Source of the DNA: Candidatus Cerribacteria bacterium 'Amazon FNV 2010 28 9'
Lineage (GTDB): Bacteria > Patescibacteriota > Microgenomatia > UBA1400 > UBA12028
Direction of reading: 5' to 3'
NCBI GenBank assembly: GCA_003176165.1
Contig: PSRQ01000023.1
Span: forward strand, 1-55,976
DNA length: 55,976 bases
Shown here: positions 4,176 through 20,870 of the stretch, piece by piece
Numbering within the stretch: the first letter of the stretch is position 1
How the letters are laid out: every line of letters begins with the position of its first letter
The notes under the pieces: generated by a model
Seen by the model: only the letters and a program-made list of their open reading frames with translations
The model's database searches: none
Told to the model about the DNA's origin: nothing
Program-made: the position numbers and the translations under genes

Positions 4176-6047
4176 TTATTGTTGTATCGTCGTCATTTGC
4201 TCTGGAGTGAGTTGTTGTTGCGCTTGTGCTGTCTGTTGTCTTCTTAAAATTTCTTCAGGATTGGTAGTGATGAGCGAGTACTCGACATCACTGGCGATGA
4301 CACGGATGGCGACGTGATTTTGACCTGCGAAAAAGAGACCCTCTCCGACATCTGCTGAAAGCAATAATCGTTTTTCTCCTTCAGACAAAAAGAACGTTTC
4401 TCCAAGTCGAGGGATAGCAACTGATGATTGTTTCATGAGCAATTGAATAGAGGAGTTGGAGACAATTGGTTTTCCCCATTCGCTATTCAAGAAATCTTCG
4501 ACATCTTGTGTAATGGTGGTGATTCCGAGAAAATATTTACGAGCCCGCTTAGCCATTGAGTGTAAAAATGACGCTGTATCTTTGTACTTCATAAAGTACC
4601 AGGCTTCATCGACGACTAAAATGCGTTTTTTCAAGTTGCGCTTCACTCTCGTCCAGACGAAATCAAGAATCATGAACATCGCGATTGGGCGCAACTCTTC
4701 TTCCAGCTCTTTGACAGAAAACACTGTGAATTTGTTGGTCAGGTCGAAGTTTGATTTTTGATCGAAAATTCCACGGAAACTTCCTTTTACAAATTTTTCT
4801 AACCGTGCGGCAAGATTGGCAGATTCTTGTGTTTCCATCCCGATGAGCACTTTGTAGAGATCTTCAAGCAATGGTGGTTCATTTGATTGAGTGGCAGGAT
4901 CGTGTGTAATACCTTTGGTTTTGTAGGCTGCGACGATGGCACGGTCAATGATGGCGTCTTCTGTGGGACTCATCTCGCCCATCATGACGCGCAAAAGTGA
5001 GTGAAGTGTGATGATCTTGGTTCCCAACTCATTTTGTCCTTCTTCATACACAGTCGAAAGATCGAAAGGATTGATTTTGACCGGAGAATCAAAGTTGAAG
5101 TTCACATACTCACCACCAACAGCTGTACACATATCTTCGTACTCATGTTCTGGATCGAGAATAATCATCTCTGTATCAAACATGAGATAGCGATATGCTT
5201 CCAACTTCACGGCGAATGATTTCCCTGCACCCGACTTGGCAAAGACGACCATGTTGGCATTTTCCATCGAGAAACGGTCAAATATAACAAGAGAATCATT
5301 ATGCTCGTTGATACCATACACAATTCCCGTCTCACTGGTTAACTCAGAAGAAGTGAATGGAAAAGTCGTCGCGAGGGAAGTTGTATCCATGTTGCGTGAG
5401 TACTGCAAGCGGTCAATTCCAGCAGGGAGAGTCGTTTTAAACCCTTCTTCCATCTGTAAGGTAGCGTTTTTGCTCACGATCAACAAACTTCCAAGTGTGC
5501 TCTGAATTTGTTTCGTAATTTTATTAAGTTCTTCGATGGTTGGCGATGAGATGGTGATATACAAACCAAACTGGAAGAAACGCTCTGCTCCTTTGGCAAG
5601 CTGTTCCTGGATGACGCGCGCATCTGCTAATTTGATTTCAGTATCAATATTGCTAATTTTTCCCTGCTTAATATCGGAAGAGAGCTCTGCCTCCATCTCT
5701 GTAATTTTGCGTCGCAAGTCATTTAAAATCTTGGCACTATCGACGGGGTAGATGTACATCGAAATGTCCATGGATTGGGGAAAGTTGATGAGGGGAGAAA
5801 GCCAGTTGGCGGGTACAGAACGAGGATAGCCAGAAATGAAGAGTGTACGTGTATACACAGAATTAATTCGCTGATAATTGAAATCAACTTCAATTGCCTC
5901 AGGTGCAATGATATCAAGAACGCTCACCAATCCAGACGAAAATTTTTCAAGATCTGACGACAAATCTTGTTGCTCTTTGGTTTGTGGTGTGGTTGTTACT
6001 CCCGTTTTAGTGGGAGGTTTGAGTAATGTAAATAAATTAACGGGCAT
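4176..6047 (-). CDS. virB4: VirB4/TrbE/PrgJ-family type IV secretion ATPase
   Basis: 623 aa. Walker A VFAKSGAGKSF, Walker B ILVVDEAWYF, then ARKYFLGITTITQDVEDF. The N-terminal domain has the IAPEAIEVDFNYQRINSVYTRTLFISGYPRSV pattern typical of Gram-positive VirB4 homologues. Confidence 0.9.
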   Translation of the reverse strand: MPVNLFTLLKPPTKTGVTTTPQTKEQQDLSSDLEKFSSGLVSVLDIIAPEAIEVDFNYQRINSVYTRTLFISGYPRSVPANWLSPLINFPQSMDISMYIYPVDSAKILNDLRRKITEMEAELSSDIKQGKISNIDTEIKLADARVIQEQLAKGAERFFQFGLYITISSPTIEELNKITKQIQSTLGSLLIVSKNATLQMEEGFKTTLPAGIDRLQYSRNMDTTSLATTFPFTSSELTSETGIVYGINEHNDSLVIFDRFSMENANMVVFAKSGAGKSFAVKLEAYRYLMFDTEMIILDPEHEYEDMCTAVGGEYVNFNFDSPVKINPFDLSTVYEEGQNELGTKIITLHSLLRVMMGEMSPTEDAIIDRAIVAAYKTKGITHDPATQSNEPPLLEDLYKVLIGMETQESANLAARLEKFVKGSFRGIFDQKSNFDLTNKFTVFSVKELEEELRPIAMFMILDFVWTRVKRNLKKRILVVDEAWYFMKYKDTASFLHSMAKRARKYFLGITTITQDVEDFLNSEWGKPIVSNSSIQLLMKQSSVAIPRLGETFFLSEGEKRLLLSADVGEGLFFAGQNHVAIRVIASDVEYSLITTNPEEILRRQQTAQAQQQLTPEQMTTIQQ

Positions 6048-6097
6048 ACAATATTAGATTATAGATAGTAGTTGGTAGTTTGTAGAGATATTATGCC

Positions 6098-7282
6098 CTA
6101 TAAACTGCTAACTGGCGGTGTTGGTGGCTTTAAATCACTATTAAACACAGGTTCTTCCTTCAAACTTACATTAGGTGCGATTGATGGTTGTAAGGGTGGG
6201 GTAACAGGTTGAACAAACACTGTCTGCGGTTGCATGTTCTGTGCAGTTGATTCTTGAATATTGATACTGGATATTTCCACCGAAGGTGGTGTCGGTGGTT
6301 TTAAATCCAACGGCGTTGATTGTAACGCGGATGGTGTCATGTGAAGGGTTGGTGTTTCACTGACCATTGGAGATTGTATGATTGGTTTAGGTTGTTCAAC
6401 CGTTTGTTGTGATGGCAGAGTTGCGGGATTCACCGACTGAGAAGGTTGGCTTGATGTAACTGGTGCAGCTTGAGCTGGAGACGAAGCGACAGGATTGGCA
6501 GCTACTGGAATTTGTGGTGCTGCGGGTTGAGTAGAAGGTTGTGCTTGCTCGTCTGGATGCTGGGGAAGTTGGGCTTGATCTTCACTGACACGCAAGTTTG
6601 CTTGGACGAGAGGCGTGGTGTATGCCGATGAATCACTCACTTTTAGTCCTTTTGCAGATTCTGGATTATAGATTGTATAAAAGAGCTGGATAAGCTCTTG
6701 CGTTTTGAGTTGTTGGGCGTACAAGCCGATACGGGCGCATTGATGAATTAAGTGATCCCGGCGTGGGCCTAGAATGGTGGCAGCTTTTTCCAACACGGCA
6801 TATTTGTCAAAGACAGGAACCGTTTTGGTTGTTTTCGGAAGCCCTGGGACGACCGACGCACTTCCAGGAACACCGAGTTCAATTGGTGATGCTGTAATGA
6901 TAATGTAAAACTTTTTTTCCAAGACATTGCGCTCTTGGACGAGTTGCTCAATAAACATGCGATAATCGCGAATTTGTTTTTTCTGAAGCGGATTATATGC
7001 GTGGACCTCTTGGTTCTTTAACAACTCCAGATAGCCCGAGACATCTTTTTGTTGTGAGCGAATAACAATTTCGATAGGAAAGGAAAGTGAATTGAGAAGG
7101 GCGGCATATGCATAGATCGTCGCATCCTGCTCTTCTTCGGAAAACAAATCGAAATTGATCGCGCTCGTGTTGAGCACCAAAGAACAAGATCCATCTTGGA
7201 GCAAGATGAGGTCATTGGTAATATCACTAATTTCGAGATATTTTTGTGTCGTCGACTGGATGGCGTTGGATTGCGTAACCAT
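6098..7282 (-). CDS. T4SS-associated protein: VirB4-N-domain-like region without ATPase, plus a Pro/Gln-rich tail
   Basis: The N-terminal ~220 aa (YLEISDITNDLILLQDGSCSLVLNTSAINFDLFSEEEQDATIYAYAALLNSLSFPIEIVIRSQ) parallels the non-ATPase N-domain of VirB4-like proteins. The C-terminal ~160 aa is low-complexity P/Q/S/T-rich with DLKPPTPP occurring twice. Confidence 0.7.
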   Translation of the reverse strand: MVTQSNAIQSTTQKYLEISDITNDLILLQDGSCSLVLNTSAINFDLFSEEEQDATIYAYAALLNSLSFPIEIVIRSQQKDVSGYLELLKNQEVHAYNPLQKKQIRDYRMFIEQLVQERNVLEKKFYIIITASPIELGVPGSASVVPGLPKTTKTVPVFDKYAVLEKAATILGPRRDHLIHQCARIGLYAQQLKTQELIQLFYTIYNPESAKGLKVSDSSAYTTPLVQANLRVSEDQAQLPQHPDEQAQPSTQPAAPQIPVAANPVASSPAQAAPVTSSQPSQSVNPATLPSQQTVEQPKPIIQSPMVSETPTLHMTPSALQSTPLDLKPPTPPSVEISSINIQESTAQNMQPQTVFVQPVTPPLQPSIAPNVSLKEEPVFNSDLKPPTPPVSSL

Positions 7283-7425
7283 TGTTTGATATTCTCTTTA
7301 TCTATTGTAGCGCATGCGTTTTTTGATTTTGTAGTTAGATTCCTTTGATCTAGGAAATTAGAAATATGATATATGAAATAAGAAAAGAAAAATCATATAT
7401 CTTATTTCCTATCTCTAATCTCTTT

Positions 7426-8484
7426 TTACGTTGCTTGAATAAGGATAGGTTGCAAGATCGTGTCATTGACGACAAGCAATGTCTTCTCAAACGTTAATCC
7501 ATTTTTCTCGACAGCAATTTCGTACTCACCTTTGGCAAGTGGCGTGACGATAGCAAACTGTCCCAGCGCATTGGTTTTGAGAGCTCTGGCTGGTGTGCCA
7601 TCGCTGCGGCGAACAATCTCCACGATCGCATTATCGACAATTTTTTGATCCGGAGTAAGCACCATCCCCACAACCATATTTGGTTTGCTGGGTGGTGCAG
7701 GAAAGGGAAGTGCTGTGCTCATGCGTACGGGTTGAAGTGATTCATCTGTTTTTTGCGTATGTTCGCTGCTCCCAATTTCTTGAGGAGCAATTGCTGCAAG
7801 GGGTTTGGATTCTGGTAGGGGAACAGTAGCGGTTTTTTTGACTTCGACTGGTTTTGCTGGTTCAAGCGGAGCGTTAACTGATGCCACGAATACCTCTTTT
7901 TCTGGTGCGGTTGTTTTAGCAGGAGATGATTGAATAGATGTGTCTGGTTGATTGGCATGAATAGTGGGGGTTGTAAACGTTGGTTCGATCAAAGGAGCTG
8001 AAAAGAGCTTCATGATACCATCGATGGCACCTTTTTCATCACTCCACATATCTGCTTCTTGTCCCTCTGGTGCAGAAACTGTCTGTAGAAAGTCATTGAC
8101 GCGTTGGGAACGTAAATGTGTAAGGTCAACATCTTGGACTGTAGTCGTAACCACCAGTGTGGTGGGTGCTGTATAGTCAAAAACTTCTGGGCGAGGATTG
8201 GTTTTTTTCCAGTAAAAAAGTGTGGGCTTGTAGATGGAAGCGAGGAAGGCAAAAAACCATCGATCCAGTGGGCGGCCTTCGTACGGGACAAACGCAAGCG
8301 CTGCTCCTCCCAAGACAAAGGTAATCATCAGTGGCCATTTAAACAGCGCGGGTGTACCAACCGCGTTGACGATGACAGCTCCAAGCACTCCACCTCCGAG
8401 CAAAAAAAATTGCTTGAGTGTCATTTGTCCAATCAAGTGGAACTCATAGCCGGTGACGTTTTGTGGAACTGGATGTTCTTGCAT
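7426..8484 (-). CDS. PrgI-family (VirB3-like) membrane protein fused to a carboxypeptidase-regulatory-like beta-sandwich
   Basis: N-terminus VPQNVTGYEFHLIGQMTLKQFFLLGGGVLGAVIV followed by a second TM matches the PrgI family pattern. The C-terminus MVVGMVLTPDQKIVDNAIVEIVRRSDGTPARALKTNALGQFAIVTPLAKGEYEIAVEKNG resembles a CarboxypepD_reg domain. Confidence 0.75.
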   Translation of the reverse strand: MQEHPVPQNVTGYEFHLIGQMTLKQFFLLGGGVLGAVIVNAVGTPALFKWPLMITFVLGGAALAFVPYEGRPLDRWFFAFLASIYKPTLFYWKKTNPRPEVFDYTAPTTLVVTTTVQDVDLTHLRSQRVNDFLQTVSAPEGQEADMWSDEKGAIDGIMKLFSAPLIEPTFTTPTIHANQPDTSIQSSPAKTTAPEKEVFVASVNAPLEPAKPVEVKKTATVPLPESKPLAAIAPQEIGSSEHTQKTDESLQPVRMSTALPFPAPPSKPNMVVGMVLTPDQKIVDNAIVEIVRRSDGTPARALKTNALGQFAIVTPLAKGEYEIAVEKNGLTFEKTLLVVNDTILQPILIQAT

Positions 8485-8548: not shown

Positions 8549-9547
8549 TTATTTTGAGAAGTTAATTGCAGGTGTGATCGCATTAACAGGAACAGAATTT
8601 CCGTCGACGGTTGCTGTTGCGGTGATGTGTATAAAGGGAATAAGCAGGTTTTGGTCTACATCAAATCGATATTCTATCTCCATCGTATCGATAGAAAGAG
8701 TTGAAATTTCTGAAGAAGATAATCTCTGCTGTGTGGCATCAGTCACACTGATGAGCCCCTTTTGAATATTTTGTTTAATTTGATCTGCTGTAAATGGGGT
8801 GATGACTTGATTGGTCTGCGTGACCGATATATACGGAGGAATAATGGCTTTCACGATTCCTTTTGTGCTGATGATGAATTGTAGTTGCGAAGGAACCGCA
8901 TTACCGATCCCTACTCCTGTCCCATTAAAACTCAATGTATAGATAAACATCCCTTGTGACGTTGGTATTTCACTGACTCCTGCATCTTCATCACCATTTT
9001 GGTAATAAATAACTTGCGGCGAATCAAGGTTGATCTCGGACTGAGGATATCCAATTTTTTGCAAAAATTGTTGAATATGTGTCACTGCAGTTTCCTTTGT
9101 GATCACACCATTACTTGCATTGGTATCTGACAGTGAATTGTTTGTATTCACGTATTGGATGGTTCCGTCATTCCCAAGGGGAGAGATAATAATACTTCCA
9201 TCACTACTCTGATACGCGTTTTGCACTTTCGTATTTTGCTCAAATTGAAACGCCTGTGTGGTACTGGGAAGAAAAGCTTGCGGTTGATATTGATTGACTT
9301 GCAAAACAGGAACTGGAGAAGTTGAAATGCTACTAGACGGTGAAATTGTCACTTGCTGGACTTGGATAGCATTTTTAGTGAAAAAAGTAGGCGTTTGGAT
9401 TTGAACTGCTGTTTTTTTCTGATTTGGAGTAAGAAGAACGAGAATCATTCCAATCAAAACGAAGCAACAGAGAACAACTCCTAAGGTAAGAAAAGGGTGT
9501 TTACGAATTACTTGAGCGAGTTGTTTTAAAAACTGCATGATCTTCAT
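8549..9547 (-). CDS. Single-pass membrane protein, positional candidate for a VirB8/PrgL/TcpC-like component
   Basis: Start set at the ATG at 9547, one nt after the upstream TAA stop; the track uses a GTG at 9583. There is an N-terminal TM (FLTLGVVLCCFVLIGMILVLL) and a ~300-aa extracytoplasmic part. The functional assignment is positional only. Confidence 0.65.
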   Translation of the reverse strand: MKIMQFLKQLAQVIRKHPFLTLGVVLCCFVLIGMILVLLTPNQKKTAVQIQTPTFFTKNAIQVQQVTISPSSSISTSPVPVLQVNQYQPQAFLPSTTQAFQFEQNTKVQNAYQSSDGSIIISPLGNDGTIQYVNTNNSLSDTNASNGVITKETAVTHIQQFLQKIGYPQSEINLDSPQVIYYQNGDEDAGVSEIPTSQGMFIYTLSFNGTGVGIGNAVPSQLQFIISTKGIVKAIIPPYISVTQTNQVITPFTADQIKQNIQKGLISVTDATQQRLSSSEISTLSIDTMEIEYRFDVDQNLLIPFIHITATATVDGNSVPVNAITPAINFSK

Positions 9548-9548
9548 A

Positions 9549-12500
9549 TTAGAACGGAACTCCACTGTTTGCACCTGGCTCACGGCAGATTCCGCTGTTT
9601 GGATTACTTGGATCTCCTTTACTCATATCACAAAATTCTGATTGGCATTGTGTATTATCAGAACAACTGCTTTCGTCTGGTAATTTGGTGCCAGAACTAC
9701 AAGAAGCATCATCTAGCCCAAGCGGAGGTGGTCCAAATGAGTAGATTTCAGAATCTTTTCCGGTACTATCAAGATATCCCATTGTTCCATCGGCTTTTTG
9801 TGTATAGGTAAATGTACGAGTCGTGGTCGTATTATTGGCTTCGCAGATGGTCATCGTTTTTGCTGTAGCATTGGTATCGCACACGATAGCAACGTGTGAC
9901 CAAGGATTACTCGATGAGTTAAAGAAAACTGCTGATCCAAGGACTAATTGATCTGGAGAAGCCGTGGGATCAGAAGCGAGGACAGTTTTTCTCGTAGTAT
10001 TTTGTTCCCAATCTTCTTGCATCTTTTCAACACCGCCGTCATTGATTTTCCACCCAGCAACGTTGGCGGAATATATGGTGTTGACCAAATTGGTACACCA
10101 AGCCATATCTTCATACTTCACATCGTTGTTACATGAATCAAAGTTATATTGGCCTTTACCAAGTGGAGCAATACAAGCATTCCCATTTTGTTGGGGACGT
10201 GGATTACTGGCATCACCTTTTTCATACAAGGATTGATTCCAAAATTGACTGCGGATGGATGGGTCTGTCGGTTGGTCATAATCATCACAGAAGCCTGGAA
10301 CGAGTTGGGCAATATATTTTTTAGCTGCAGTGACGAGTCGATTGCACCCGCTTACCTTATATGACTGTGGTTGGGTGAGCGGAGGGTTATTGTATTTTGC
10401 AAAATTCGCAGCGGAAGCTTGGCAGTCGCTGTTATTTTCGCTCGGGGGATGGGACATGTCTAATTGGCAGCCGCTGTGGGAAACAGTGTCTTTAATTTGT
10501 ACACTATTGGGAATAATAGTGTCTTTTGCGATATTAATAGGTGTGGTATGTGTGGTGTCATTGGGATTATTGACACGAATTGCTTCGTAGTGAAGGTGAG
10601 GACCAGTCGCATTACCTGTTGCTCCCATTTGCCCTAAAAATTGGTTTGCACTAACTTGAAATGGCTGGTTGATGGGGATTCCAGTAGCGAACGCTGATAA
10701 GTGGCCATACACTTGAACAAAATCTCCTCGTTGTGGATCGCTCACGTAGATCCAAATCGAGTTTCCATATGGCGTTTTGTAACAAATCCCATGATCATCA
10801 TCGGGTGCAGGTTTGAAAAAATAACGACAGGTTGCTTTTGTGGTCCCTTCTGGATCTGTTTGTTGATCTTCTTCTGCCACAGCCGTGCCGCTATATGGAG
10901 CAAATACATTGGTTCCTTGTTTGTTGGTGATATCAACCGCTGCCCACCATCCATTTTGTAAGGCGGTGTTGGCTTCTGTGGAATTTGTTGGAACAATAAA
11001 CGTATGTCCATTCATTGGGAGGGCGCTATATTCGGGTGCTTTTCCTTCATACACAGAGTGAAATGATCCATCTGGATAGTATTGAGTTGAGGAGATTTTT
11101 CCATCCGTTGGCCAAGCTCCGGGAGAACAAGAGCCGGATGCAGAGCCTGGGCCTCCAACAGTAGGGACCAAGTATTGGCTCAGCATCGTTGGGACGACGA
11201 CAGTCGCAGTGATGATGCCGACTGCAGCGATGGGACCCACGACGACACCAGCAGCTCCTAGTGCTGATGAAAACGCTGGTGTCAAATGAGAGAGTGATGC
11301 TAAAAAGTTGCTTGCGGTTGCGACGGAACTGGCTCCTGCAGTAGCTGTATATCCTGCTGCTTGGGAGGCGAGAGCTCCTGCTGTAGGTGCGGCCGTTGCG
11401 GCTCCAGCAGCTGCTCCTTGAGCGGCAGCACCTGCCACTGTGGGAAGTTGTGAGGCTCCCCATTTCCCGGCAGTCGCGAGATTAAGCTCCGCATTTCCAA
11501 TTCCTTGAGCGAGGGATCCTCCACCAACGGTAATTTGCGTCGATGCATATCCAGCGCCGAACCCACCAAGAAGAGCTCCAGCTCCTGCTCCAAACACTCC
11601 ACCGATAAGCGTTCCTGCTCCGGGAACAATACTTCCAATTGCAGCTCCTACCTGTGCTCCCGCCCAACCTCCAGCGATGGCACCACCGACACCCACGGTA
11701 GCTGCCCCAGCTCCACCTGCAAGCCCTTGTGTGATCGCACCATAAATAAATGCCCCACCGACCCCGGCAGCGCCACCAATAGCTCCGGCGAGGAGTGGGT
11801 TTTTCGCGATGGTACTTCCTTGATCGACGGCTTTGGTGAAGTTTTGGAGATTGTTTTGTGATTTAAAGAGATCAGCGATCGATGAATTTGACGCATCACT
11901 TTGTTGATACCACTCATCGAAGGATGGCTCTTCTCCTTCTGCTGGCGCATAGCCGGTATCTGCATACAACTGATTCAATTGATCTTGATTGTCTTGCGCA
12001 TCCGTAAACATTTGACGCAAGATTGATTTGCGCATTTCCTCAGCGAGCAAGACATCGCGATCCACTTTTTGACCAGCATCTTGGGCTTCTTGGATTTCTG
12101 CACGCAGTTCACTTCCTGAAGTAGCAAAAACTTTTTCTGCAAAATCTTCGCGCGTGCGATAGTAGATTTGCATGCGCTTGCTGATCGTGTTGAGTTGATC
12201 GGTGATATGCAGTGCTTGAGCCGTGTCATTTCCTACGTCGACCGGTTCTTGAAGAGATAGGGAATCGCGTTTACTTTGGGTTAACTCTTGGACATACGAG
12301 CGTGCCAGCTCGTAAATTTGATTTGATTGTTCAAGTTTTGTATGAAGACGAGGTTGGTTAAGGGCTAGTTTGGTAAAGAAATCGCTATCGTTCGTTTTAA
12401 TGAGTGCTTGATAAAAAGCTGCGCGTTTCAGGACGTTTTCATCCAGCGCGTCGAAGTAACGAAGAGCTTTTGGATCAATGCCGTGGTCGATACAGTACTG

Positions 12501-13232
12501 GAGAAAAGAACTGCGCAAAAAGATATTGGCATTGCGGCGCATATCATTGCGCTTTTGCTCACGCTGATCTGCTGTTTGTTCTTCATGTGGTTTCGATGAT
12601 TGAAGACTTTGGAAGTGTGATCCTACTGTGTGAGATTGTTTTTGTTCAGGCTCAGGAACAGTTTCTCCTTTTTTTGCAGCTTCTTCCTCTCGTTGTGCTC
12701 TGTCGAGTTCTCCCTCTAGTTCGTGCAATTTATCATTTATATAGAAGACGAAAATTTGCAAGAAAATGATAAATCGGCCAGTCCAGTGAAAGGTCTCTGC
12801 AAACTCCTCAGGAGGAAGAGGGTTTTGCTTCAGTTCTTCACCGATGTTTTTTTCTTTGTTCCAGTCTCTCTCGATCTCTTGCATCCATTTGGGGTGGTTA
12901 CTGAGGACCGAGGGTATTTGAGGCAGTTTTTCGCTGTACTCTGTCCAAATGGGTCCGACGGGAATACCGAGCAGGGAATCTGTGATCCACTGTGAAAGTA
13001 AGGTCCGACCACCGAGATCTTTGATGATTTTAGAGGGAAGTTGCTTGCTCACGTTATCATCTGGAAGGGCACTGATTTCATCGAGCGTAAGCGATTGTAG
13101 TTCGTTCGTAATGGAGTTGGGGTTGGAGAGCAGTTGTCCAAAATACTGCCCCGAGAGGTAAATGTTGGCTTGGTCGCGCACGGAGAGGATGACGCGAATC
13201 TGATCAGAAATCTCTTTTGAGCTCATGCCCAT
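9549..13232 (-). CDS. PrgK/VirB1-like giant cell-wall hydrolase: coiled-coil N-region, Gly/Ala-rich membrane region, M23 peptidase, CHAP domain
   Basis: 1227 aa. Residues ~478-700 are a GxxxG-rich hydrophobic tract. M23 core: VDITNKQGTNVFAPYSGTAV ... VYGHLSAF ... GQMGATGNATGPHLHYEAIRV. CHAP: AWCTNLVNTIY (Cys), WSHVAIVCD (His), ICEANN. The C-terminal tail is Cys-rich. Confidence 0.85.
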   Translation of the reverse strand: MGMSSKEISDQIRVILSVRDQANIYLSGQYFGQLLSNPNSITNELQSLTLDEISALPDDNVSKQLPSKIIKDLGGRTLLSQWITDSLLGIPVGPIWTEYSEKLPQIPSVLSNHPKWMQEIERDWNKEKNIGEELKQNPLPPEEFAETFHWTGRFIIFLQIFVFYINDKLHELEGELDRAQREEEAAKKGETVPEPEQKQSHTVGSHFQSLQSSKPHEEQTADQREQKRNDMRRNANIFLRSSFLQYCIDHGIDPKALRYFDALDENVLKRAAFYQALIKTNDSDFFTKLALNQPRLHTKLEQSNQIYELARSYVQELTQSKRDSLSLQEPVDVGNDTAQALHITDQLNTISKRMQIYYRTREDFAEKVFATSGSELRAEIQEAQDAGQKVDRDVLLAEEMRKSILRQMFTDAQDNQDQLNQLYADTGYAPAEGEEPSFDEWYQQSDASNSSIADLFKSQNNLQNFTKAVDQGSTIAKNPLLAGAIGGAAGVGGAFIYGAITQGLAGGAGAATVGVGGAIAGGWAGAQVGAAIGSIVPGAGTLIGGVFGAGAGALLGGFGAGYASTQITVGGGSLAQGIGNAELNLATAGKWGASQLPTVAGAAAQGAAAGAATAAPTAGALASQAAGYTATAGASSVATASNFLASLSHLTPAFSSALGAAGVVVGPIAAVGIITATVVVPTMLSQYLVPTVGGPGSASGSCSPGAWPTDGKISSTQYYPDGSFHSVYEGKAPEYSALPMNGHTFIVPTNSTEANTALQNGWWAAVDITNKQGTNVFAPYSGTAVAEEDQQTDPEGTTKATCRYFFKPAPDDDHGICYKTPYGNSIWIYVSDPQRGDFVQVYGHLSAFATGIPINQPFQVSANQFLGQMGATGNATGPHLHYEAIRVNNPNDTTHTTPINIAKDTIIPNSVQIKDTVSHSGCQLDMSHPPSENNSDCQASAANFAKYNNPPLTQPQSYKVSGCNRLVTAAKKYIAQLVPGFCDDYDQPTDPSIRSQFWNQSLYEKGDASNPRPQQNGNACIAPLGKGQYNFDSCNNDVKYEDMAWCTNLVNTIYSANVAGWKINDGGVEKMQEDWEQNTTRKTVLASDPTASPDQLVLGSAVFFNSSSNPWSHVAIVCDTNATAKTMTICEANNTTTTRTFTYTQKADGTMGYLDSTGKDSEIYSFGPPPLGLDDASCSSGTKLPDESSCSDNTQCQSEFCDMSKGDPSNPNSGICREPGANSGVPF

Positions 13233-13270
13233 CTATTATATCTCGAAAGTGCGTGGCTGTGCTGATGGTA

Positions 13271-13299
13271 TAAAAAAGGCGCTGTTTTATACAGCGCCT
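13271..13299 (-). terminator. Rho-independent terminator after the 13316-13717 gene
   Basis: Perfect hairpin ggcgctg / cagcgcc with an A-run on the plus strand, which is a T-run on the minus strand. Confidence 0.6.
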
Positions 13300-13315
13300 C
13301 AGAATAAAAGGTCAG

Positions 13316-19031: not shown

Positions 19032-20870
19032 CTATTCAATAGGGGGAGTTGGGTTGTGAACTTTTCTTCCGGCTGTTGGGTTTGACGCAGATGGAGGAGT
19101 TGGGCGTGGTCGTTTAGAAGGATCAAATCGGTCCAAAGCATTTTGTATCTCTTCTCCTGCAACCACATTAATAACCGCTCCAGTTGTTTGTCTACCGACT
19201 GTTTTAGCTAACTTCCATGCTTCACCACTCGAAACGAAGCCTCCACCAACTGCTCCAGCTGCTGTTCCTACTGCAGTATTACGAACAAGCCGGCCGGCTC
19301 TTTCTTTGAGTGTCCCTGGTTCTTTGATTGCGCTGTTAAGTCCAAGTAGGGCTCCTCCAGCGAACCCAACGCCAGCTCCTCCAAGAGTTCCTCCGACCAA
19401 AGTTGCTGGCTTAATGCCTTTTTCAAAATTCTTTCTCAGATCTTCAACTCCTACTCCCAATTCGCCCTTCATAAGTCCCTTCGTTACTTTTAATACTTCT
19501 GGCATAGCTAAAATGGCACCCAGAGCTAATAATCCTTGATATGCTCCCACACCGTTTGTTCCTTGATTGCTCCCAAGCTGAGGAGCAGAGAATCCCGTGT
19601 CGCTGCTTGTAGTATTGATGCCAAGTGTAAAGAAATAAGCGATAAAGATGAGCAAAATGAGGGCAGGGAATACTAAGAGATTTTCAAAGAGTCCCTTGAT
19701 CCATTTCCCAAACGTGTTTTGTCCAGGGAGGGCACCAAAAAGAAGTTGGATAGGCGCAAAAATAACGGAAAAGAAAACGGCAATGTACGCGTTTACTAGA
19801 GCAAAAAATGTGCGAAAGAGGGAAACGAGAATGACAATGGTAAGCACGAGAACCATGATGACATTTGTCACGCCCCCGACAAGTTTTCCTGCAAAATCCG
19901 CAATTCCTGTCCCTCCCAATCCCGCGTTGGTTAAGCTAGCTACAATATCACCTATATTTTGAGAAATGCCACCGACTAGATTGCCGATGATACCGAATCC
20001 ATTGGAAAAGATGTTTTGTACAAATGCAATATCTTGAAGTCTCAAGGTAGTTAGTTTTCCTCCTGAAGCAGAAGAGAAAATACCAATCATGAGGTAGATG
20101 ATCAGATACATGATGTCGATCATCAGTCCAGCGATGGCGTAAGAGAACGTAACCAAGATGAGTGAGACGACAAGCTTGGGAAGCATTTGCTGTGCAGTCA
20201 CGGCTGCTTGAGAACCAATTTTACTGCGAATCATGATGAGAAAGCCAACAACTACAAAGATGACGACAAAGAAGAAATACGCGACATCACGAAATACTTT
20301 CCATAACCCTAACACGGGGCTTAAGGATGAAAACCCAATACCTTGTGCATACGCAGATTGAACAAATGGATGTTGCATGTTTTGCATCACGTCCGCCACA
20401 TATTCACGAGAACTCACTGGTGGGTTTGCCAGTGCAATACCTGTCATATTGAGTGTGGTTCCAATCGCTCCAGGATAGTAGAGAGCTGTTTGATGTCCAG
20501 ATCCCGAGTTAGCTTGGCTAGAACCGCTTGGAGTGGTCCCTGCCATTAACACGATGAGGCCTTTAAGGATAGAACACAAGGCACCATCTCCAGAAACTTT
20601 TTGCGTGGTCGTATCTGTAAATCCACAGTCAGCGACTGTTGTTGTTAGGTTTGGAGCGCCTGTTGTGAGGCCCGCTCCGATAGAGTCAAGGTAACTTGAA
20701 ACAGCATCTGATGAAGGACCACCTTGTGCGGGGGAAGGTAAATTGGGACCCGCTGCAGCTTGCACGCGCGCAATTCCTGCAAACACAAATGCCATAAAGA
20801 CAAAAACGGCGAGAACAATCGATGGAAGTTTTTTGAGTATGCGGCGCATCGGACCTCTCTTATCTGGCAC
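19032..20870 (-). CDS. VirB6/TrbL-like polytopic membrane protein
   Basis: 612 aa. Signal-anchor (LAVFVFMAFVFAGIARVQAAA), a ~150-aa exposed region, at least 6 TM helices, and a Gly-rich C-terminal tail ending Pro/basic. It sits in a T4SS context next to the hydrolase and pilin genes. Assignment rests on architecture, not a motif. Confidence 0.7.
   Translation of the reverse strand: MPDKRGPMRRILKKLPSIVLAVFVFMAFVFAGIARVQAAAGPNLPSPAQGGPSSDAVSSYLDSIGAGLTTGAPNLTTTVADCGFTDTTTQKVSGDGALCSILKGLIVLMAGTTPSGSSQANSGSGHQTALYYPGAIGTTLNMTGIALANPPVSSREYVADVMQNMQHPFVQSAYAQGIGFSSLSPVLGLWKVFRDVAYFFFVVIFVVVGFLIMIRSKIGSQAAVTAQQMLPKLVVSLILVTFSYAIAGLMIDIMYLIIYLMIGIFSSASGGKLTTLRLQDIAFVQNIFSNGFGIIGNLVGGISQNIGDIVASLTNAGLGGTGIADFAGKLVGGVTNVIMVLVLTIVILVSLFRTFFALVNAYIAVFFSVIFAPIQLLFGALPGQNTFGKWIKGLFENLLVFPALILLIFIAYFFTLGINTTSSDTGFSAPQLGSNQGTNGVGAYQGLLALGAILAMPEVLKVTKGLMKGELGVGVEDLRKNFEKGIKPATLVGGTLGGAGVGFAGGALLGLNSAIKEPGTLKERAGRLVRNTAVGTAAGAVGGGFVSSGEAWKLAKTVGRQTTGAVINVVAGEEIQNALDRFDPSKRPRPTPPSASNPTAGRKVHNPTPPIE

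Follow-up and report, generated by a model that had tools for sequence, protein, structure and literature searches.

A probable membrane-anchored peptidoglycan peptidase with a conserved glycine/alanine-rich module, encoded at a type IV secretion locus of Candidatus Cerribacteria

Introduction

What does a 1227-residue protein with two wall-degrading domains and a region of some 220 residues built largely of glycine and alanine do at the head of a cluster of secretion genes? The question is raised by an open reading frame (ORF) on the minus strand (9549..13232) of contig PSRQ01000023.1 from Candidatus Cerribacteria bacterium 'Amazon FNV 2010 28 9', a member of the Microgenomatia within the Patescibacteria; the 55,976 nucleotides of this contig constitute the window analysed here, and the source genome is of 1.06 Mb and 95% complete. 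A first-pass annotation, made from the sequence letters, had described the product as a hydrolase similar to PrgK of Enterococcus faecalis, with a glycine-zipper membrane region and a non-canonical, possibly altered zinc site in its M23 domain.

The ORF is real and has the length given above. In our view, its product is probably a membrane-anchored peptidoglycan peptidase, likely with both enzymatic domains active, that belongs to a chromosomal, relaxase-less type IV secretion system (T4SS) of Microgenomatia and in which a conserved N-terminal domain and a Gly/Ala-rich module carry exchangeable enzymatic heads. By analogy, it would be a functional counterpart of VirB1 and PrgK. We regard it as an atypical representative of a known class of T4SS helpers and not as a broken enzyme. 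Below, this reading is weighed against an enzyme with a dead M23 site, a protein crossing the membrane only once, a device ejected into a host, and a housekeeping hydrolase.

Results

Family and genomic position

Word-indexed homologue searches returned essentially the query alone, and an exhaustive HMMER search over 1.84 billion representatives yielded 325 matches at E<=1e-3, most of which were generic M23 domains or unrelated Gly-rich proteins. The true relatives form about 16 clusters, making up a tiny, lineage-specific family. They share the N-terminal domain and the Gly/Ala block, while the enzymatic head may be M23+CHAP, Ig-like+M23, Ig-like+HExxH zincin, M23+HExxH, or a lysozyme/SLT-like (soluble lytic transglycosylase) end. 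The M23+CHAP head of the query is also found in P0003 (35% identity over residues 124-1198), P0004, P0005 and P0008. The enzymatic heads are interchangeable across the family, which retains the N-terminal domain, the Gly/Ala module and the place in the locus; the length of the Gly/Ala block is maintained in different genera and with different heads.

In most relatives (L016, L018, L019, L022, L024, L038, L046) an additional beta-rich domain with the 'YTITLTPK' motif, Ig-like or DUF11-like by eye, lies between the last transmembrane helix and the enzymatic head; it is missing in the query and the M23+CHAP subgroup.

The hydrolase gene stands at the head of core T4SS genes, followed by g8549 and by genes for PrgI, a protein resembling the N-terminal part of VirB4, and VirB4 itself (Table 1). 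The order VirB4, g6098-like gene, PrgI, (g8549-like gene), large protein with the Gly/Ala block was observed in relatives from the same taxonomic family and order as the query organism, namely in seven of the twelve fetched loci, and in an eighth locus, L027, the Gly/Ala-block protein follows VirB4. The nearest named VirB4 loci are those of Ca. Woesebacteria and of the Microgenomates group, which places the query organism in the class Microgenomatia of the Patescibacteria. In the vicinity of VirB4 the Gly/Ala block is usual in the closest lineages and patchy elsewhere, being absent or weak in most loci labelled as Gottesmanbacteria or Levyibacteria.

Several candidate relatives were rejected. 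Gly/Ala-rich ORFs near VirB4 in Saccharibacteria (L104, L106) turned out to be VirB6-like polytopic proteins and not family members, and M23 matches on Rhodobacteraceae plasmids, considered as possible conjugative-plasmid relatives, are located in a metal-homeostasis island.

The M23 domain and its metal site

Both wall-degrading domains named by the first-pass annotation were confirmed with Pfam. The Peptidase_M23 profile matched residues 821-889 with 45.7 bits (cut-off 28.7), over profile positions 32-92 only, leaving unaligned the part of the profile that normally carries the HxxxD motif. The module has the clade motif AWPTDGKISS and two insertions, at 726-766 and ~790-820. In the AlphaFold2 model of residues 696-1227 the M23 core has a predicted local distance difference test score (pLDDT) of 75-93, and a Foldseek search of the PDB with this model gave, among the top ~50 matches, nearly exclusively M23 peptidases, with 137-217 aligned columns and TM-scores of 0.55-0.64 to the catalytic domains.

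The unusual feature of the domain is its first zinc ligand. The residues W763-A-A-V-D767 and H879-L-H881 indeed read as the first-pass annotation had them, and W763 does occupy the position of the canonical His; a conserved His, H725, is situated further upstream, separated from D767 by 41 residues. Across 15 aligned sequences D767, H844, H879 and H881 are invariant and the H725 column is His in nearly all members, while H743, considered as a zinc ligand as well, was rejected, as its column is not conserved. The motif (C/A)WP..G.I(S/T)Q...(S)H upstream of the Asp is common to the query and to members with canonical HxxxD (L024, P0073, P0151). The number of residues between His and Asp forms a continuous series of 3, 6, 7, 8, 9, 10, 11, 12, 14, 22, 31 (P0003) and 41 residues, in all cases with the WP..G motif. 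Among 18 VirB4-linked and related M23 modules 17 lack the His at position -4, and all 17 carry the upstream His; the modal form in the T4SS-linked modules is [ST]H-x6-D[IF].

Such variation is known in characterized enzymes. The M23 motif is defined as H(x)nD, with n=7 in gp13 and n=12 in LasA (PMC9662197), and the metal site of beta-lytic protease is formed by His22, Asp36 and His123 (PMC9783410); the spacings n = 3, 7, 12 and 13 have been verified structurally (PMC9662197, PMC9783410). As judged from conservation, the site of the query is quite probably complete, with H725, D767 and H881 as the ligands and H844 and H879 as the catalytic residues, and the first His would have been displaced by a 41-residue loop, probably at the position of groove loop 1. 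The earlier expectation of altered zinc binding is thus not borne out, given the conserved His upstream of the inserted loop and the rarity of the -4 His among the T4SS-linked modules.

The CHAP domain and the C-terminal tail

The CHAP profile (PF05257) matched residues 1040-1133 in the full-length protein (26.1 bits, cut-off 26) and in the isolated domain (31.1 bits, E=3.4e-7); the match spans profile positions 3-81 of 81, and four of the five family members match. The Cys and His thought intact at first reading, C1046 in CTNLV and H1113 in SHVAIV, are indeed so, and together with E1131 and N1133 they are invariant in the family. The CHAP region is modelled at pLDDT 85-94, and CHAP structures are absent among the listed Foldseek matches, which M23 dominates. 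Sequences of solved structures matched the region by chance only (fibronectin type II, E=0.14; Chd1, E=0.024), the former in an insertion before the catalytic Cys (QQNGNACIAPLGKGQYNFDSCNNDVKYEDMAWC, residues 1014-1051, nucleotides ~10080-10193, minus strand), where the match is non-significant and probably fortuitous.

The protein ends with a Cys-rich tail of the pattern C-x11-C-x5-C-x4-C-x14-C, closing with G.PF, which matches no family and might form a small binding module of the disulfide-knot type.

The Gly/Ala-rich module

The Gly/Ala-rich block was found where the first-pass annotation had placed it, at residues 478-695 (nucleotides 11148-11801), with 49 Gly and 56 Ala among 218 residues and only two charged ones. 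Its core, residues 478-562, contains 30 Gly and 21 Ala in 85 residues (35% Gly) and no charge at all. The GGN/GCN-rich DNA encoding the block has a local G+C content of 0.49, as compared with about 0.42, resulting in the four overlapping alternative-frame ORFs noticed earlier (11047-11463, 11300-11638, 11505-11861 and 11648-11965).

Local alignment of the block to homologous Gly/Ala blocks scored 8-21 standard deviations (z) above composition-preserving shuffles. Thus, the block is a conserved sequence module and not a chance product of composition. The core starts with a conserved NP motif, followed by three marginally hydrophobic helices separated by conserved TQG and VPGxGT turns; the motifs YG..TQG.AGG.GA and AIGS.VP.IGT.IGG are conserved as well. 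In the homologues a basic stretch and then ANP precede the first hydrophobic helix. On the Hessa translocon scale the apparent insertion free energy (ΔGapp) of the three Gly-rich helices is +3.2 to +5.3 kcal/mol. The last segment, which contains the motif GPL.A.G..T....P.L..FL.P, is more hydrophobic, its best 19-mer (662-680) having ΔGapp +1.9, and the homologous segments -0.1 to +1.8, whereas the transmembrane helices of neighbouring T4SS proteins have values mostly between -1 and -4.6. AlphaFold2 places helices at 479-486, 494-504, 513-533, 540-558, 620-649 and 657-688, all at pLDDT 25-40. Among these segments, the last is the likeliest to be a true transmembrane helix. In the absence of a signal peptide, an odd number of membrane spans is needed to bring the enzymes to the outside, where they must be.

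The term 'glycine zipper' used at first reading should be retained only as a compositional label. No Gly-zipper Pfam profile (PF13488, PF13441 and related) matched the query at E<=1, and only one relative, L024, has a match to PF13488, which is sub-threshold (24.7 bits, cut-off 25). The core contains 12 GxxxG motifs compared to 9.9 +/- 2.1 in composition-matched shuffles (P=0.22), that is, no excess, although small-xxx-small patterns in the block are mildly enriched over shuffles (P about 0.01-0.03).

The N-terminal region

Residues 1-477 did not match any profile in Pfam or NCBIfam, and a fold search of the PDB with the N-terminal model gave nothing significant (all E>1); in the viral fold library BFVD this model met only tape-measure proteins below significance. 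The region is hydrophilic, as noted before, and predicted to be entirely helical; the coiled coil that had been suggested was not demonstrated, and instead a compact helical domain is modelled in its second half, at ~260-480. The N-terminal region would be cytoplasmic.

Neighbouring genes and other features

The coordinates are collected in Table 1. The gene upstream of the hydrolase gene is closed by a terminator-like hairpin, after which a perfect TATAAT is situated 3 nucleotides 5' of the first ATG of the hydrolase. Thus, the hydrolase gene opens a transcription unit. The third codon of the query, Met3 (ATG, 13224-13226), aligns with Met1 of the homologues, and the true start may be Met3, on a leaderless or very-short-leader mRNA (13224-13300, minus strand).

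Table 1. Coordinates of the hydrolase gene, of the parts of its product and of adjacent features in the window
Feature	Position	Strand	Basis
Terminator-like hairpin closing the upstream gene; 10-bp stem with 6 GC, T-run	13276..13300	-	
Whole coding sequence, 1227 residues; stop TAA at 9549-9551	9549..13232	-	ORF list, translation
N-terminal hydrophilic, all-helical region, residues 1-477; no signal peptide	11802..13232	-	hydrophobicity, AlphaFold2
Compact alpha-helical domain, residues ~260-480; confident model (pLDDT 70-88)	11793..12455	-	AlphaFold2
Gly-rich core, residues 478-562	11547..11801	-	hydrophobicity, homologue alignment, AlphaFold2, Hessa scale
Uncharged A/S/T/Q/G-rich linker, residues 563-650; motifs I.VG..S.AQ and L.GT..FL..L	11283..11546	-	homologue alignment
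Last, most hydrophobic segment, residues 651-690	11163..11282	-	hydrophobicity, alignment, AlphaFold2, Hessa scale
M23 metallopeptidase module, residues ~705-895	10548..11120	-	Pfam, alignment, AlphaFold2, Foldseek
H725, putative first zinc ligand (clade-conserved His of H(x)nD, n=41)	11058..11060	-	alignment
W763-A-A-V-D767; D767 invariant (zinc ligand), W763 at the canonical His position	10932..10946	-	alignment
H844 (YGHLS), invariant catalytic His ~35 residues before HxH	10701..10703	-	alignment
H879-L-H881, invariant HxH motif	10590..10598	-	alignment
CHAP-type cysteine peptidase/amidase domain, residues ~955-1175; Pfam core 1040-1133	9708..10370	-	
Cys-rich C-terminal tail, residues 1176-1227 (52 residues); kept in P0003 and P0004	9552..9707	-	alignment
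g8549, downstream gene; bitopic membrane protein (one transmembrane helix, ΔGapp -4.4)	8549..9583	-	ORF list, hydrophobicity
T4SS core genes, same orientation as the hydrolase gene	4176..8484	-	library scans, relatives' loci
PrgI-family gene	7426-8484	-	
VirB4-N-like gene (g6098)	6098-7282	-	
VirB4 ATPase gene	4176-6047	-	

The next gene, g8549, overlaps the 3' end of the hydrolase gene by 35 nucleotides. Its product has a single strong N-terminal transmembrane helix and a relative at the same place in L023 (E=5e-14). In sequence it is not similar to PrgL (E=11), but it is placed relative to the hydrolase as prgL, which encodes a VirB8-like protein, is placed after prgK in pCF10. Canonical VirB1 or VirB8 were not found in most Patescibacteria (PMC12102498), and by this positional analogy g8549 may be considered a candidate for the VirB8 not yet found there.

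The ~130 N-terminal residues of the g6098 product match the N-terminal domain of VirB4-type ATPases (NCBIfam VirB4_plasma, E=1.1e-7; TrsD/TraD, 5.9e-4), and the protein has no ATPase domain; a similar gene lies beside VirB4 in nearly all of the relatives' loci that include VirB4. Further along the locus there are a VirB6-like gene, a 1640-residue enzyme-studded protein, and arrays of T4SS pilins. The 612-residue product of the VirB6-like gene (19032-20870, minus strand), with about seven strongly hydrophobic transmembrane helices and no Pfam or NCBIfam match, is probably the VirB6-like channel subunit; its relatives are present in L020, L022 and L024.

Two further T4SS-linked proteins of 560 residues, encoded directly downstream of VirB4 (L093:7790-9472 and L096:12123-13826), are built of an acidic G/A/E-rich low-complexity stretch (70% G+A), one transmembrane helix, a lysozyme-like middle part and an M23 domain with H-x11-D. 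They represent another way of achieving the same task, in a separate lineage of the candidate phyla radiation. Many public records of metagenome-assembled genomes with clear Patescibacteria T4SS loci (L028-L101) are titled 'uncultured Pseudomonadales', 'Gammaproteobacteria', 'Bathyarchaeia archaeon' or 'Clostridia bacterium', and these taxonomic labels are evidently wrong.

Discussion

In the reading that we prefer, the helical N-terminal domain of ~470 residues would stay in the cytoplasm, where it could dock on the VirB4/PrgI machinery of the inner membrane. The Gly/Ala-rich module would be situated in or at the membrane, the last and most hydrophobic helix taking the chain outside, and its tightly packing small-residue helices would probably mediate oligomerisation or packing against other membrane subunits of the T4SS. 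Outside the membrane, the M23 endopeptidase and the CHAP peptidase/amidase would act on peptide cross-links or stems of the peptidoglycan, so that the pilus or channel could pass through a local opening in the wall of the cell itself and, possibly, in that of the host bacterium.

Among known proteins, one close to this layout is PrgK, from the DELTA-class T4SS of the E. faecalis plasmid pCF10, which consists of an intracellular N-terminal domain, one transmembrane helix, a degenerate LytM domain devoid of metal, a muramidase that is active, and a CHAP domain (PMC11323569). The gene immediately downstream codes for its VirB8-like binding partner, PrgL (PMC11323569). Both the query and PrgK are encoded beside PrgI and a VirB4-like ATPase, both genes are followed by a gene of a bitopic membrane protein, and both proteins would share the order of intracellular N-terminal domain, membrane part and extracellular hydrolases including an M23/LytM-fold and a CHAP domain, with the topology of the query being predicted. 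The differences are substantial as well. The N-terminal domain of the query is unrelated to that of PrgK and about twice as long. The single transmembrane helix of PrgK is strongly hydrophobic (ΔGapp -3.3) and its G+A content does not exceed 0.23 per 200 residues, so that the ~220-residue conserved module of the query is not a PrgK feature and, as the first-pass annotation had it, goes far beyond a simple anchor. The LytM domain of PrgK lacks both metal motifs, the active domain being the muramidase, whereas the M23 site of the query appears complete. No match to enterococcal plasmids was obtained by tblastn in 72,556 plasmids.

Closer to the organism, a survey of Patescibacteria T4SS reported VirB1-like proteins with added M23/LysM domains (Quinonero-Coronel et al. 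2025, PMC12102498); in Ca. Southlakia epibionticum essential peptidase/lysozyme genes adjoin virB4 (PMC12102498). The VirB1 set of that survey was defined by TrsG/CD419/VirB1 profiles, and it describes neither the Gly/Ala-rich membrane module nor the N-terminal helical domain (PMC12102498). These proteins and the query have in common the phylum-level T4SS type and an M23 wall-degrading enzyme encoded near virB4, and the T4SS-linked M23 modules of Patescibacteria share with the query the WP..G motif and the displaced His. On the other hand, many T4SS-linked M23 proteins of other classes (L093; most loci labelled as Gottesmanbacteria or Levyibacteria) have a single transmembrane helix or none. 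Phage phi29 gp13 (H-x7-D), LasA (H-x12-D) and beta-lytic protease are similar to the query in the M23 fold, the H(x)nD and HxH motifs, and a loop between the first His and the Asp. With n = 41 (31 in P0003), the spacing in the query is far longer than in any characterized M23 example, and the ligand is assigned there by conservation only.

Several observations weigh against the peptidase anchored at the T4SS. With respect to PrgK, there is no sequence similarity to the query (BLASTP, best E=0.13), and no glycosidase domain was detected, as soluble lytic transglycosylase, lysozyme and glycoside-hydrolase profiles of Pfam, NCBIfam and PHROGs gave no match; hence the description as PrgK-like holds for the layout and the genomic position and fails for sequence homology and the glycosidase. 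The CHAP region has no match among the sequences of solved structures in the PDB. The hydrophobicity of the three Gly-rich helices is no more than marginal and the whole block is modelled at low confidence; should these three helices and the last one all cross the membrane, an even number of spans would result, with the enzymes on the cytoplasmic side. Finally, that H725 reaches the metal is suggested by its conservation, while in a linear profile-profile alignment with hhalign the H725 column falls on the 'RxHP' region of canonical M23 proteins, which provides no ligand; in this alignment a lost His and an inserted loop are not separable.

Two alternatives concern parts of the protein. Should the membrane be crossed by the last segment alone (residues ~657-688), the Gly/Ala stretch would be a flexible, uncharged low-complexity spacer or a membrane-surface region on the cytoplasmic side and not a transmembrane bundle of the glycine-zipper type. 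This topological variant of the anchored peptidase, which we consider rather unlikely, would agree with the contrast in ΔGapp between the Gly-rich helices and the last segment, the low pLDDT, the number of GxxxG motifs expected from composition, and the PrgK-like bitopic topology with the correct parity, N-terminus inside and C-terminus outside. However, the conservation of motifs (the TQG and VPGxGT turns, helices of 19-23 residues, no charge over 85 residues) exceeds what a spacer needs, and the length of the block is kept across heads and genera. The other alternative is that the M23 domain is catalytically dead by replacement of the first His with Trp and plays a regulatory role, like the degenerate LytM domains of PrgK, EnvC and DipM, with CHAP alone or neither domain cleaving. 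It is consistent with W763 at the canonical His position, to which it is also matched by hhalign, with the degenerate, metal-free LytM of PrgK, and with the presence of the degenerate EnvC and DipM among the Foldseek matches. But degenerate LytM domains lose both HxxxD and HxH, whereas here D767, H844, H879 and H881 are invariant, the upstream His is conserved in all members lacking the -4 His, and enzymes with the spacings n = 7, 12 and 13 are active. A dead domain is therefore improbable in our estimation.

Two further alternatives concern the role of the whole protein. It, or its processed fragment, could be exported by the T4SS as a penetration device resembling phage tape-measure proteins, such as pb2 of phage T5, or glycine-zipper pore-forming effectors, the Gly/Ala helices inserting post-translationally into the host membrane as a conduit and M23 and CHAP digesting the host wall. 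Indeed, pb2 consists of a coiled coil, a hydrophobic stretch and a muralytic metallopeptidase (PMC10038345), the same order of parts as in the query (long helical region, hydrophobic segments, muralytic metallopeptidase). The ΔGapp of the Gly-rich helices, while atypical of co-translationally inserted transmembrane helices, is typical of conditionally inserting segments; the Gly/Ala blocks of the query and of L024 have weak PHROG matches, those of L024 being to tape-measure and tail-lysin families; the viral fold library BFVD yields mostly tape-measure and minor-tail proteins; exchangeable enzymatic heads are a typical trait of effectors and tail lysins; and the organism is presumably an epibiont that needs to breach the envelope of its host. 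The tape-measure matches, however, either lack significance or reflect composition (best Foldseek E=5e-3, probability 0.51, TM-score about 0.1, rmsd 46 A), the PHROG tape-measure matches of the query are confined to its M23 part, and outside the M23 domain there is no significant similarity to tape-measure proteins in sequence or fold (PHROGs, BFVD). The hydrophobic part of the query is about five times longer than that of pb2, and its gene belongs to a secretion-system operon, with a conserved place at the head of structural genes, whereas pb2 is encoded in a tail module. Stable anchoring with the N-terminus inside is in line with the basic stretch ahead of the first helix and with the greater strength of the last transmembrane helix, and there is no known secretion signal or cleavage site. 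An exported device thus seems unlikely to us. The last alternative, a housekeeping hydrolase of wall remodelling or division that merely happens to lie beside T4SS genes, would be in line with the common occurrence of M23 and CHAP enzymes in growth and division and with the location of the locus near dnaA/dnaN. It is very improbable, as two separate canonical M23 genes exist elsewhere in the genome (125 and 105 bits), the position beside PrgI/VirB4 is kept across genera while the enzymatic head changes, and the family is tiny and lineage-specific.

The T4SS-linked M23 domains of Patescibacteria make up a clade in which the putative first zinc ligand is displaced, and annotation pipelines or readers could mistake them for degenerate LytM domains. 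The H-x41-D loop, if situated at the position of loop 1 of the substrate groove, may set the substrate specificity, for example, own versus host wall. A more speculative suggestion, to which we assign a rather small probability, is that the N-terminal domain and the Gly/Ala module are a new lineage-specific part of the T4SS, comparable in its action to a phage tape-measure or ejection protein, ejected through the T4SS and forming an oligomeric conduit in the host membrane while the swappable head cuts the host wall; if this were true, these epibionts would have in it their tool for breaching the envelope of the host.

With respect to the use that ultra-small Patescibacteria make of their chromosomal, relaxase-less T4SS, the family offers a definite candidate, conserved in its position, for the component that opens the wall in Microgenomatia. 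Its enzymatic head is modular, while a previously undescribed helical domain and Gly/Ala-rich membrane module are retained.

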